Shown: positions 12,922 through 16,810, numbered from the stretch's first letter. The stretch: 64,000 nt of DNA from an uncultured Actinomycetes bacterium (GCA_963742735.1 CAVUMN010000003.1:352001-416000); one strand, 5' to 3'. Notes: generated from the sequence alone by a model not told the origin. Numbers and translations: made by a program.

Positions 12922-13658
12922 GCGTCGGGGGGCGACAGCAGATACGCGGAGGCCTCCCGATCGAACGCCGTCGCCACCAGGCCGGCGGCCATCGCCGCCT
13001 GCAGCTCGTCCGCGACCGAGTCCCGGAGGGCTCGGGCCCCCTCCGGATCGGAGATGCGCAGCGCCTCGTGGTCGGCCGGGATGGTCACCCGCGCGGTCAC
13101 CTCGGCCACCTCGCGCGGGCCCGGCGCTCCGTGGAGGTCCCACCGAACCTCCAGTCGGTCCGATCGCTGGCCACGGTTCACGTCGTCGTCCATGTCGCCG
13201 TAGTAGTGCTTGTGGAAGCGGTCCGCCACCGTCCCCAGGATCTGGAGGTTGAAGTACGCGTTGCGGGCGATGAGCGGATCGAACGTCCAGCGCATCGTGC
13301 CGATGCCCTGTTTCAGGGCCCACGCGCGCTGGGCCAGCTTCAGGGCTCGGCCCACGCCCCTGGACCGCTCGCCCCCGGTGACGGCGAGCTGATGGGAGTG
13401 CACGTGGAGCCCGTCCTCGCCCGCCCCGATGAACCCCAGGACGAACCCAACGACCTCCTCGCCGGCGAAGGCGCCCAAGGGGGGGATCCCGGCTCCCTGG
13501 AAGGCGCGGATCACCTCCCGGGGCACCAGCTGGCCGTCGCCCCACGCCTCTCGTTGGAGCCGGACGACCGCGCCCGCCTCGTCGAGGGTGGTGAGGGTCC
13601 GGATATCCACGCCGGCCTCCCCGGCGGCGAGCCGGGCGGCTTCGTGGGGATCGTCCAT
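12918..13658 (-). CDS. GNAT-family acetyltransferase
   Basis: HSHQLAV..ERSRGVGRALKLAQRAWA, WTFDPLIARNAYFN, SDRLEVRW. Confidence 0.85.
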   Translation of the reverse strand: MDDPHEAARLAAGEAGVDIRTLTTLDEAGAVVRLQREAWGDGQLVPREVIRAFQGAGIPPLGAFAGEEVVGFVLGFIGAGEDGLHVHSHQLAVTGGERSRGVGRALKLAQRAWALKQGIGTMRWTFDPLIARNAYFNLQILGTVADRFHKHYYGDMDDDVNRGQRSDRLEVRWDLHGAPGPREVAEVTARVTIPADHEALRISDPEGARALRDSVADELQAAMAAGLVATAFDREASAYLLSPPDA

Positions 13659-13698
13659 GGCCGGCGAGTGTAGCCCCGCCGGCGGTACCCTCCTGGCG

Positions 13699-14298
13699 AT
13701 GGCGACCGACGAGCCCCACCTCGTGATGCACGAGCTGCACCGCCGGGCGGGGGAGACCTTCAACGCAGTTCTCCGGCAGGCGAACGGGACGGACTGGCAT
13801 GCCCCGACGCCGTGCGGGGAATGGGACGTTCGCGAGCTCGTTCACCATGTGGTCTCCGGCAACCTCTGGGTGCCCCCACTCGTGGCCGGCGAGAGCCTCG
13901 CCGAGGCGGGAGCACGCCTCGACGGCGACCTGCTCGGGGACGATCCGATCGGGGTCGGGCTGGCCTCGACCGTGGCGGCCACCGCGGCGTTCGATGAGCC
14001 CGGCGCCCTGGAGCGAACGGTGGAGCTCTCGCGCGGGCCGTCTCCGGCCCTGGACTACTGCGCCGAGCGGATGAACGACCTGGCGATCCACGCCTGGGAC
14101 CTGGCCGCGGCCCTCGGGGTCACCGTCGAGCTCGACCGCGAGTGCATGGCCGCGGCGACGGCGTACCACCGGCCGCAGGAGGCAGTGGGGCGGCCCGCAG
14201 GGATGTTCGGTCCGCCGGTCGATGTCGCGCCGGACGCCGATCCACAGACCCGCTTCCTGGCGTTCTGGGGCCGACGCGCCGACTGGGCCCCCGAATAG
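13699..14298 (+). CDS. TIGR03086-like metal-binding protein (mycothiol-dependent maleylpyruvate isomerase/DinB superfamily)
   Basis: WHAPTPCGEWDVRELVHHV, DLAIHAWDLA, DADPQTRFLAFWGR. Confidence 0.85.
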   Translation: MATDEPHLVMHELHRRAGETFNAVLRQANGTDWHAPTPCGEWDVRELVHHVVSGNLWVPPLVAGESLAEAGARLDGDLLGDDPIGVGLASTVAATAAFDEPGALERTVELSRGPSPALDYCAERMNDLAIHAWDLAAALGVTVELDRECMAAATAYHRPQEAVGRPAGMFGPPVDVAPDADPQTRFLAFWGRRADWAPE

Positions 14299-14330
14299 CG
14301 CCGGGTCCCCGCGGGGCCTAGAGTCTGGCC

Positions 14331-14891
14331 ATGACCGCGCCCGGGGTCGGCGACCCAGCCCCCGACTCGGTCCTCTGGGATCCCGACGGCGAGGACGTCG
14401 CGCTCTCCAGCTTCTGGAGGGAGCGGCCCGCGCTGCTGGTGTTCCTCCGGCACTGGGGCTGAACGTTCTGCCGCCGGCACGTCGCGCAGTTGCGTGACGA
14501 GGAGGACCGACTGACGCCGCTGGCCAACGTCGTGTTGGTGGGCCAGGGGCGGCCCGAGCATGCCCGGGACTTCTGCGCGGCTCGCCGCGTCGCCGACCGC
14601 TTCCACTGCACGGTCGCTCCGCACAACGAGACGTATCGCCAGTACGGCCTCGACCGGGGGTCGTGGATGGCGGTGGCCGGGCCGAAGGTGTGGCTCCCCG
14701 GCGCGCAGTCCTTCTTCGGCCCCGAGACGCACCAGGGCCGAACGAAGGGCGACCCGATCCAGCTCGCCGGCACCTTCGTGATCGACGCGGCCGGCGTGAT
14801 CCGCTTCGCGCACCGAAACCGGACGTCGGCGGATAATCCTGCGAACGAGGACGTGCTGGCCGCTCTCGAGGCGGTCGTCTCGGGTTCCTGA
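14331..14891 (+). CDS. Peroxiredoxin-like (AhpC/TSA_2, PRXL2/SelU-like) selenoprotein, 186 aa, Sec at codon 44
   Basis: ATG 14331 reads MTAPGVGDPAPD...LLVFLRHWG-TGA(14460-14462)-TFCRRHVAQL and continues in frame to QLAGTFVIDAAGVIRFAHR; the TGA occupies the first Cys position of CxxC. Confidence 0.88.
14480..14499 (+). promoter_or_regulatory. Putative bacterial SECIS hairpin
   Basis: CGUCGCGC-AGUU-GCGUGACG, an 8-bp stem (one G-U) with a G-containing loop starting 25 nt after the UGA. Confidence 0.65.
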
Positions 14892-14906
14892 GGAAACGGA
14901 GGTCAG

Positions 14907-15794
14907 GTGGCGGTCCAGGACAAGGTGATCATCACGTGCGCCGTCTCCGGTGCGGTGGCGAACAAGCAGCAGTGCCCGGGCATTCCGTACACGCCCGAGG
15001 AGTACGCGAAGGAGGTCCGCCGGGCTCGTGACGCGGGCGCCACGATGGTCCACATCCACGCCCGGGAGCCCAACGGGACGCCGACCGTCAAGGCCGAGCA
15101 CTACAAGGCCATCACCCAGGCGGTTCTCGCCGAGACGCCCGACATCATCATCAACTACTCCACCGGCTTCGTGGGGCTTCCGATGGCGGAGCGCGTCGCC
15201 CACATCGTCGAGCTCAAGCCCGAGGTCGGCGCGCTGAACATGGGCTCCATGAACTACGCGAAGTACTCGCCGAAGCGCAAGGGGTTCGTCTTCAACTTCG
15301 TGTTCGAGAACCACTTCGACGACATCATCTTTCTGCTCGAGCGCATGAAGGAGGCCGGTGTGAAGCCGGAGTGCGAGACCTTCGACGTCGGCCACGTGGA
15401 GTCGGTCGCCCCGCTTGTGGATCTGGGCGTGCTCACCCCGCCGATCCAGTTCTCTCTGATCCACGGCGTGCTGGGGGGCATCCAGGCCACCGCTCGCAAC
15501 CTGGCCCACATGTCGAGCGTCGTCCCGGACGGGTCGACGTGGGGGGTCATCGCCATCAGCCGGAACCAGTGGATGATGGTCGCGGCGTCGGCCACCCTGG
15601 GCGGCAACGTGCGGGTCGGCTTCGAGGACAACTTCTACCTCCCGTCGGGGGAGATGGCGTCCTCGAACGGCGAGCTCGTGGAGTCGGCGGCCGCGATCTG
15701 CCGGCTGCAGGGACGCGAGGTCGCGGAGCCCCAGGAGGCCCGATCGCTGCTGTCGCTGCCCCTCGAGCCCGACCGAACCGCGGTGATGGCCTGA
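14907..15794 (+). CDS. Beta-keto acid cleavage enzyme (BKACE/Kce, DUF849) family
   Basis: KVIITCAVSG, PYTPEE, MVHIHAR, LNMGSMN, KPECETFD, GGNVRVGFEDN. Confidence 0.93.
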   Translation: MAVQDKVIITCAVSGAVANKQQCPGIPYTPEEYAKEVRRARDAGATMVHIHAREPNGTPTVKAEHYKAITQAVLAETPDIIINYSTGFVGLPMAERVAHIVELKPEVGALNMGSMNYAKYSPKRKGFVFNFVFENHFDDIIFLLERMKEAGVKPECETFDVGHVESVAPLVDLGVLTPPIQFSLIHGVLGGIQATARNLAHMSSVVPDGSTWGVIAISRNQWMMVAASATLGGNVRVGFEDNFYLPSGEMASSNGELVESAAAICRLQGREVAEPQEARSLLSLPLEPDRTAVMA

Positions 15795-16009
15795 TGGCCA
15801 CCGAGGTCCAGGCCGAGATGGTCGCCAACGTCTGGAAGATCGTCGTGGCGCCCGGAGACACGGTGGCCGCCGGCGACCCGCTGGTGATCCTGGAGTCGAT
15901 GAAGATGGAGATCCCCGTGGAGTCCCCGGTGGACGGCACCGTGAGCGAGCTCCGCGTCCAGGAGGGGGGCGTCGTCCAGGAGGGCGACGTCATCGCGGTC
16001 GTCGAGTAA
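15794..16009 (+). CDS. Stand-alone biotin carboxyl carrier protein (TB7.3/Rv3221c-like)
   Basis: 71 aa MATEVQAEMVANVW...ILESMKMEIPVESP with the biotinylation motif; TGATG overlap with BKACE. Confidence 0.92.
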   Translation: MATEVQAEMVANVWKIVVAPGDTVAAGDPLVILESMKMEIPVESPVDGTVSELRVQEGGVVQEGDVIAVVE

Positions 16010-16018
16010 CGTCGCCGC

Positions 16019-16810
16019 GTGACGCTGGTTCGCATCGAGCCCGGCCGGGTCTGGCGGCTCACGCTCGACCGCCCGGAGCAGCGCAACGCGGTCTCCGCGG
16101 CGATGATGGAGGAGTTCCTCTCGGCGCTGGGCGACGCCGCCGTCGATCCCGCCGCGCGGGCGATCGTCCTGGCGGGCGCCGGCGACCACTTCTGCGCCGG
16201 AGCCGACGTCGCGGAGCTCCTGGAGGCCACCGGGGGTCCGGGGGCGATCGAGTACGGCCGCGCATTCGAGGAGGTCCTCCGGGCGATCGGCGACCACCCC
16301 GTGCCGGTCATCGCCCGGGTCCAGGGGGCGGCCCTGGGGGCGGGCTGCCAGCTCGCGGTGGCCTGCGACCTCGCCGTGGCGGCCGAGGACGCCAGGATCG
16401 GAATCCCGTCGTCGCGTCTCGGCCTGCTCATCAACGTCGAGAACATCGAACGCCTCACGCTCTCCGCCGGATCGAAGCGGGCCGCCGAGCTCCTCTTCAC
16501 CGGCCGGGCCCTGGAGGGAACGGAGGCCGCAGCGTGGGGGATCATCAACCGTGCGGTGCCCGCCGCGGACCTCGACCAGGAGGTGGATCGGCTGGCGAAG
16601 CTCATCGCGGACGGGGCGCCGATCTCCGTCCGGGGTTCGAAGCGGGGGATCCAGGCCGTGCTGGGAGCCCTGTCCATGGACGAGACGACCGAGCGGGACC
16701 GCATCGCGGAGTTCGACATGATGGCCGCGCAGGCCCTGGCCAGCGAGGACCTCCGTGAGGGGATCGCGGCCTTCCGCGAACGACGCCCTCCGGAGTTCCG
16801 AGGCACGTGA
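16019..16810 (+). CDS. Enoyl-CoA hydratase/isomerase family
   Basis: LDRPEQRNAV, HFCAGAD, ALGAGCQLAVACD, EGIAAFRERRPPEF. Confidence 0.92.
   Translation: MTLVRIEPGRVWRLTLDRPEQRNAVSAAMMEEFLSALGDAAVDPAARAIVLAGAGDHFCAGADVAELLEATGGPGAIEYGRAFEEVLRAIGDHPVPVIARVQGAALGAGCQLAVACDLAVAAEDARIGIPSSRLGLLINVENIERLTLSAGSKRAAELLFTGRALEGTEAAAWGIINRAVPAADLDQEVDRLAKLIADGAPISVRGSKRGIQAVLGALSMDETTERDRIAEFDMMAAQALASEDLREGIAAFRERRPPEFRGT

Follow-up and report, generated by a model that had tools for sequence, protein, structure and literature searches.

A mis-annotated peroxiredoxin-like gene of an uncultured actinobacterium very probably encodes a selenoprotein of the SelL-related family

Peroxiredoxin-like (Prx-like) selenoproteins with a UxxC motif, in which U is selenocysteine (Sec), have been in print since 2005. 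Prx-like selenoproteins of the Sargasso Sea carried UxxC instead of TxxU, with UXXC in 21 of 22 sequences (PMC1088965); the GOS data set added 'Prx-like 1', placed on pfam00578 (225 sequences), and 'Prx-like 3', placed on pfam08534 (PMC2398784), and genome surveys have recovered Prx-like UxxC selenoproteins too (PMC1794560, PMC5029168). This literature, in which the proteins go under names such as 'Prx-like thiol:disulfide oxidoreductase' or 'Prx-like 1/3', describes members mainly from Deltaproteobacteria and marine metagenomes. A 2026 review also lists Prx-like selenoproteins and mentions neither NF040769, the NCBIfam model to which we assign the present protein, nor any term containing 'actino'; the selenoprotein of cd02970 (PRX_like2) is given in its table as UxxS, not UxxC (PMC13188914). 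SelL, too, has been called 'a Prx-like protein' (PMC2398784).

The gene described here lies in a window of 64,000 nucleotides (the whole stretch of DNA analysed), which corresponds to positions 352001-416000 of contig 3 in a 3.08-Mb assembly (5 contigs, 88.9% complete) of an uncultured bacterium, a probable actinobacterium of soil. On the plus strand, a frame of 186 codons plus a terminal TGA (14331..14891) opens with the ATG at 14331-14333, closes with the TGA at 14889-14891 and contains a single in-frame TGA, at 14460-14462. Its translation, MTAPGVGDPAPDSVLWDPDGEDVALSSFWRERPALLVFLRHWG-U-TFCRRHVAQLR..., gives a product of 186 aa, in which this TGA falls within FLRHWG-U-TFC, as residue U44, and the TGC at 14469-14471 encodes its partner, Cys47. 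(The search query, P0001, carried C in place of U44, and its 187th residue is spurious, coming from the true stop read through.) Conservation of the column, alternation with Cys, contigs that bridge the site, a SECIS hairpin and the Sec machinery of the genome, all described below, lead us to conclude with high confidence that the UGA at 14460-14462 is read as selenocysteine, the first residue of an active-site UxxC motif, and that the gene, mis-annotated so far, encodes a true bacterial selenoprotein, a SelL-related / PRX-like2 redox protein of thioredoxin fold.

Gene callers report only the part of the frame that follows the active site. The sole entry for this frame in the ORF list (table 11) is a 133-aa ORF with a TTG start (14490..14891, plus strand), from which the active site is absent, and the window's own database entry (P0002) likewise has 133 aa. 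Among the 52 database proteins found, all 13 relatives with at least 65% identity are 123-136 aa long and cover 65-71% of the query; one of these short records is the 133-aa NCBI protein MEX2458321.1, 'peroxiredoxin-like family protein [Actinomycetota bacterium]'. The initial annotation had described the frame, the TGA, the quoted translation and the lone short ORF just as we find them, and its expectation that standard pipelines would cut the gene short holds for every one of these relatives.

The protein matches NF040769 (SelL-related redox protein) at 142.7 bits (cut-off 120) over positions 2-172 of the 173-position profile, as do, over cut-off, 12 of 12 other Sec forms and six of the eight other forms tested (seven Cys and one W). 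We found no family-level difference from NF040769, and its public close relatives are recorded as proteins of ~133 aa. Pfam searches gave AhpC-TSA (PF00578) at 46 bits, AhpC-TSA_2 (PF13911) at 40.7 bits (cut-off 27) and Redoxin at 32.5 bits, and an AlphaFold model built with 33 sequences (pLDDT 92.8, pTM 0.90) has the Prx/Trx fold with U44 directly before helix 45-56. With the AhpC-TSA_2 domain over its gathering score and UxxC ahead of the first long helix, the protein belongs to the AhpC-TSA_2/PRXL2-like group, as had been proposed. Its best sequence relative of solved structure is PRXL2B, the human prostamide/prostaglandin F synthase (PGFS; PDB 9us9, 9usa; E 2.5e-5), whose alignment spans residues 19-176 and sets CvvC squarely on U44-t-f-C47, so that its C47 meets ours, and which matches the fold at TMt 0.75. 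PRXL2B differs in being a eukaryotic Cys enzyme of ~22% identity, and nothing points to a prostaglandin substrate in the bacterium.

The top Foldseek ranks are held by AhpE, Bcp/PrxQ and PGFS. The 1-Cys peroxiredoxin AhpE of Mycobacterium tuberculosis (PDB 1xvw, 5id2 and others) provides the top structural matches (E ~2e-10, TMt 0.79-0.85), and AhpE and Bcp/PrxQ together span TMt 0.78-0.85. One rival reading keeps the selenoprotein but makes it a peroxidase of peroxiredoxin type, in which C47 would attack the peroxide and U44 would be resolving or activating; assigning the nucleophile's role to U44 would then be wrong. The superposition of the AhpE peroxidatic Cys on C47 and of its conserved Thr on U44 speaks for such an enzyme, as does the PF00578 match. 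The canonical catalytic set of peroxiredoxins, however, consists of the PxxxTxxC motif and a conserved Arg, and three of these four residues are lost here: R40 and A146 stand at what we take to be the Pro and Arg positions of the AhpE alignment, U44 stands at the Thr, and only C47 is kept. Because the Thr and Arg positions of AhpE hold U44 and A146, we regard the site as CxxC-type and not Prx-type. Furthermore, PRXL2B, the nearest relative by sequence among solved structures, is a CxxC enzyme, the title of whose entry names a C44S/C47S mutant, and Sec normally occupies the most reactive position of an active site. A peroxidase working through C47 thus seems unlikely to us; the protein has a peroxiredoxin-like fold and a thioredoxin-type UxxC active site. 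The published Prx-like UxxC selenoproteins share this combination of a thioredoxin-like motif and a peroxiredoxin-like fold, together with pfam00578/pfam08534 matches and a SECIS right after the UGA with a G in its small loop, a likeness drawn from the published descriptions of these proteins.

In the reading we prefer, SelB carrying Sec-tRNA(Sec) decodes the UGA at 14460-14462 on the cue of a SECIS within the coding sequence, with an AGUU loop, and U44-x-x-C47 lies at the N-terminal end of helix 45-56. As for the chemistry, homology with the PRXL2B CxxC makes it most likely that the U44 selenolate would attack an oxidised substrate, whether peroxide or disulfide; the intermediate would be resolved by C47, giving a selenenylsulfide, and a reductant of the thioredoxin or mycoredoxin type would reduce this in turn. 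For the catalytic chemistry, the substrate and the reductant alike, homology is the guide.

Homologues were sought at two taxonomic depths. Across 41 genomes from the window's genus and order, its own included, there were 15 near-full-length matches with one TGA and four without; among 401 genomes of the phylum, 52 had a match at E<=1e-15, 49 of them a TGA-bearing one (including G057, flagged as unpublished), and the 60 rows obtained comprised 55 with TGA and five free of stops. In all rows examined that held a second stop, this was the terminal one. The column-level check covers 42 loci put in register, 37 with TGA and five stop-free, and excludes 27 TGA rows of the 401-genome search as well as G025:C289 of the same-order search. 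All 37 registered TGA homologues have the TGA in one shared column, that of G-U-x-x-C, and the five stop-free homologues from the phylum have TGC or TGT there; so does a Cys form from another phylum, FLRHWGCTFC of a Solibacteraceae MAG at 40% identity, the one locus that a search of genome contigs for related loci yielded. The alternation of Cys and TGA that had been anticipated for this column is thus found, with Cys in six stop-free relatives, and both the alignment column and the CvvC register of PRXL2B place the TGA on the first Cys of the CxxC redox motif. Identity of the homologues to the window protein runs from 79%, for a genome of the same genus with the same TGA (G001), down to 36%. 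Seven rows of the 37-row alignment (A1) are flagged as unpublished (G006, G014, G027, G041, G085, G202, G252), and the shared TGA column and the invariant hairpin loop described below hold equally in the 30 non-flagged rows.

The motif itself is UxxC in 36 of the 37 registered Sec forms and U-P-F-Y (UxxY) in the remaining one, an observation that comes wholly from the unpublished G202; a second in-frame TGA within the motif, which would make it UxxU, occurs in none of the 37. Herein lies the difference from SelL, a eukaryotic and marine protein whose UxxU motif forms a diselenide and after which NCBIfam names the bacterial family NF040769; the Prx-like thioredoxin fold and a Sec at the first position of the motif are common to both. 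The G202 locus (L060), with Tyr for the partner Cys, has an intact hairpin and a Cys paralogue in the same genome, and may represent a gene in decay, a variant with one Sec or an incomplete bin. Sec and Cys forms occur together in G025, G202 and G382, and two genomes carry two TGA copies each, head to tail and within ~90 nt of each other (G171, C130:56119-57185; G145, C240:9964-11025), which shows that Sec forms can be tandemly duplicated. Residue 41 is His in all 37 Sec forms (LRH[WYFL]GU); it is Tyr in a large nested Cys clade (FLRYFGC), and His is kept in some other Cys forms. His41 may tune the selenol.

A second alignment (A2) was made of 32 of the 52 database proteins, leaving out the 13 short ones and P0043-P0046 and P0051-P0053. 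Cys occupies the Sec column in 28 of the 32 and W in four, and C47 is invariant. The four proteins with Trp at the U44 column (P0047-P0050; FLRHFGWGFC, FLRGFMWPFC) come from contigs of ~1-1.5 kb, and their Trp may stand for a TGA codon that a metagenome gene caller read with code 4.

Downstream of the UGA lies a bacterial SECIS hairpin (14481..14498, plus strand), which consists of a 7-bp stem (14481-14487 with 14492-14498) and, 25 nt past the UGA, an apical AGUU loop (14488-14491). The stem is present in the minimum free energy fold, and an eighth pair is available here (14480-14499). Folding alone does not single it out, shuffled versions of the 76-nt stretch being just as stable (z +0.31; 120 of 200 fold as well), and an Rfam scan of 14300-14950 at E<=10 gave five matches, all with E>=3.5 and at chance level; bacterial SECIS elements are described as poorly represented in Rfam in a recent preprint (10.64898/2026.04.03.716425). 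Since the folding energy is not better than that of shuffles, the case for the SECIS rests on comparative evidence. The loop and its flanking bases, C-AGTT-G, are invariant in 37/37 Sec forms of the ungapped alignment A1, and RNAalifold independently yields the same 7-bp stem, with compensatory changes in five of seven pairs. For the 8-pair version, 90% of the cells pair, compared with 16-55% when the partner is slid by one to three columns either way. The covariation score of 0.363 (shuffled mean 0.203) was reached by 0/500 shuffles, a count that is not a probability, as the rows are related coding sequences in which the signal may be partly inherited. The Leu codon of the loop is TTG in every one of the 37 Sec forms, a codon used for 1 of 88 Leu residues in four neighbouring genes (70.9% GC), whereas the six Cys forms have CTG or CTC at this Leu and the loop is not kept. 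In nine of the metagenomic contig pieces listed, which come from more distant organisms, the match is confined to ~14442-14500 (for the most part 14457-14498, the interval from the UGA through the 3' end of the stem) and the sequence to either side is unrelated; within the family, nucleotide conservation appears to be highest over the segment from UGA to SECIS.

To place the Sec and Cys forms relative to each other, we used an unrooted tree of 62 rows (37 Sec, 23 Cys, 2 W) with the Sec/Cys column masked, from which P0017, P0018, P0020-22, P0024, P0027, P0028, P0034, P0038, P0047, P0050 and L065 were excluded. Sec forms sit on most of its deep branches. The tree needs six switches between Sec and Cys, at least three of which are forced by well-supported branches. 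Seventeen Cys rows with FLRYFGCPFCQ form a clade (support 98/86), and this clade falls inside a larger one (96/85) together with the Sec forms of the window's order. As one SECIS is common to all Sec lineages, we infer that Sec is the older state in this family and Cys the younger.

These results bear on whether the TGA is instead a recent nonsense mutation, a pseudogene lesion in a gene that once contained Cys and that would now make fragments, if anything. Such an origin would fit the Cys-containing members of the family and the way in which gene callers and databases take the TGA as a stop. Yet the TGA homologues span identities from 79% to 36%, and so the TGA is not a recent lesion; conservation of its column throughout the 37 homologues contradicts the lesion that the initial annotation had named as a possible refutation. 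Both halves of the frame are intact, a covarying SECIS follows, most deep branches of the tree belong to Sec forms, and the genome holds the Sec machinery described next. We consider a nonsense mutation very improbable, and selenocysteine remains our reading of the codon.

The initial annotation had pointed to selA, selB, selD and tRNA-Sec as what a Sec-decoding genome should hold, and all four are present in this one, each above its curated cut-off: tRNA-Sec at 73.6 bits (gathering score 47; called tRNA-SeC with anticodon TCA by ARAGORN), selA at 502 bits (cut-off 268), selB at 286 bits (cut-off 242) and selD at 391 bits (cut-off 125). Otherwise UGA functions here as a normal stop codon, terminating the selenoprotein gene itself, the two genes that follow it (encoding a beta-keto acid cleavage enzyme, BKACE, and an enoyl-CoA hydratase, ECH) and 72 of 125 stop-to-stop frames of at least 250 codons in the window. 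The genome also holds release factor RF2 (prfB), matched in two neighbouring pieces (254 and 220 bits, sum 474) on contig 4 of the assembly (G000) at 1462228-1462842 and 1462844-1463254, in adjacent frames and split at model position 216/217. The programmed frameshift of prfB lies near codon 25. The split, being far from there, may reflect an assembly indel or a real disruption.

Because UGA is otherwise an ordinary stop and RF2 is present, a code-4 reading is excluded, and we give almost no credence to UGA being a general sense codon here, for Trp as in code 4 or for Gly, with a residue other than Sec. UGA-to-Trp reassignment is reported in Actinomycetota, namely in Eggerthellaceae, where the stop-codon preference of the reassigned genomes is attributed to low GC (PMC13462651), and four database homologues do show W at the Sec column. 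Against this stand the 70.9% GC measured here versus the low GC of those genomes (PMC13462651), the Cys, not Trp, of the homologues at this column, and a dedicated tRNA-Sec with selA and selB. Selenocysteine thus stays the residue we assign.

Equally negligible is a sequencing or assembly error for TGC or TGT, for which one might cite the 88.9% completeness in five contigs and the apparent split of prfB across two frames as signs that some errors may exist, since the same TGA is found at 79% identity in G001 and in that column in 36 other genomes, and since positions 14460-14462 are spanned by contigs from four studies, drawn from three DNA runs of soil and one metatranscriptome, with no difference at the site among the rows listed (X1 record 2; X2 record 14, with 1 difference in 151; X3 record 21; X19 record 9). 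Short soil-metagenome contigs at 95-99% likeness span the UGA site, and the whole stretch is covered by no run; the sequencing runs share at most 0.16 of the sampled words, and the contigs give neither depth nor expression. The contig from the RNA library that crosses the TGA may be DNA carry-over.

The statement that selenocysteine use is uncommon in described Actinomycetota is not supported, given that selA is over cut-off in 260 of the 401 sampled genomes (12 of the 401 flagged as unpublished) and that several lineages are documented in papers: Actinomycetota have been called selenoprotein-rich (PMC1794560), all 84 Actinomarina genomes contain the Sec machinery (bioRxiv 10.64898/2026.04.03.716425) and so do most Eggerthellaceae (PMC13462651). 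Of the 49 genomes with a TGA-bearing match, 45 have selA at E<=1e-30 and a 46th, G139, has a tRNA-Sec at 80.7 bits; the TGA-form genomes G371, G257 and G202 (completeness 98%, 69% and 96%) have neither selA nor tRNA-Sec over cut-off.

Three further selenoprotein genes were found in the window's genome. One is selD itself (L018; contig 4, 1524556-1525476), with its TGA in HGAG-U-ACK and, 33 nt past the UGA, a hairpin with a GUU loop (z -2.41) that is different from the SECIS of the SelL-related gene. Another encodes a PrxQ/Bcp-type peroxiredoxin (L070; contig 4, 1141938-1142315, plus strand) with the TGA at the peroxidatic position, FPKAATAG-U-TVEG, that is, PxxxTxxU; its NCBIfam matches, over a partial region, are below the equivalog cut-offs. 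The third is a ResA-like protein with LLAWASW-U-GC (L071; contig 4, 297478-297816, minus strand), which matches NF041054 (WAxxUGC_long) at 478 bits (cut-off 300) and has a GGUCU-loop hairpin 23 nt past the UGA. The genome search for a Sec-containing formate dehydrogenase gave no match over cut-off to TIGR01553, and its four PF00384 matches are all free of stops.

The gene may well be expressed without a leader. A -10-like hexamer, TAGAGT (TANNNT; 14319..14324, plus strand), lies 6 nt before the ATG as a putative promoter, as had been noted, and the arrangement is conserved: of 36 Sec-form homologues, 21 have an upstream TANNNT that ends 6-7 nt from the predicted start and 23 have one at 5-8 nt, with 0-2 of 36 in other 4-nt bins. 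For these counts the start was taken as the in-frame start nearest the colinear position, and G014 was dropped because of a contig end. Three homologues (G208, G172, G051) have a clear GGAGG-type site instead, and a scan of 14100-15000 for E. coli-type two-hexamer sigma-70 promoters found no site. A leaderless mRNA beginning at ATG 14331 is plausible, and the transcript probably runs on into the genes for BKACE and enoyl-CoA hydratase, so that BKACE would be co-transcribed.

The BKACE gene (14907..15794, plus strand; PF05853, 313 bits) begins 15 nt past the selenoprotein stop and is followed by the genes for enoyl-CoA hydratase and endonuclease III. It lies directly downstream at 11 of 13 other same-order Sec-form loci (G006, G014 and G027 among the 11 are flagged as unpublished) and at none of 22 wider-phylum Sec-form loci, so that the link between selenoprotein and BKACE is order-level synteny and not a family-wide partnership. 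The order selenoprotein, BKACE, enoyl-CoA hydratase is kept across the taxonomic order (14907-16810 in the window; loci L022-L033), which suggests an operon. At the same-order loci, BKACE identity is 82-88%, compared with 43-79% for the selenoprotein. Upstream, at 13429-14298, is a gene with a mycothiol-type MDMPI_N domain; a functional link to it was considered and dropped, this neighbour being conserved in G001 only and partly in G029.

Taken together, these observations allow a broader reading, which we put forward tentatively and hold to be somewhat less probable than its negation. Sec would be ancestral in this family throughout the phylum, and a single homologous SECIS would maintain it: its apical C-AGUU-G also serves as the Gln-Leu codons of AQLR, a conserved helix motif, such that RNA and protein constrain each other, and the Cys clades would be at least three secondary escapes from this constraint. 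The Sec trait of these soil Actinomycetota would then be kept by a set of thiol-oxidoreductase selenoproteins (the SelL-related protein, SelD, the TxxU peroxiredoxin and the WAxxUGC protein) and not by formate dehydrogenase.

What our analysis establishes for this gene is its recoding signals, the machinery that serves them, its family and its fold. The novelty implied in the initial annotation was overstated, as a curated NCBIfam model exists and Prx-like UxxC selenoproteins have long been published; the kind of selenoprotein is already known and the mis-annotated member is what is new. Among the articles covered by our literature search, none describes this subfamily in soil Actinomycetota.

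In summary, knowledge of Sec decoding itself is unchanged by this finding. The 37 Sec forms and several Cys forms, with one covarying SECIS, constitute a natural data set that could seed a bacterial SECIS model and that can be used for studying the interchange of Sec and Cys. The practical value of the finding concerns annotation, since databases, NCBI included, systematically list this widespread selenoprotein as a 133-aa fragment that lacks the active site. Because the gene is recorded as a fragment, redox inventories of these largely uncultured bacteria understate their dependence on selenium.
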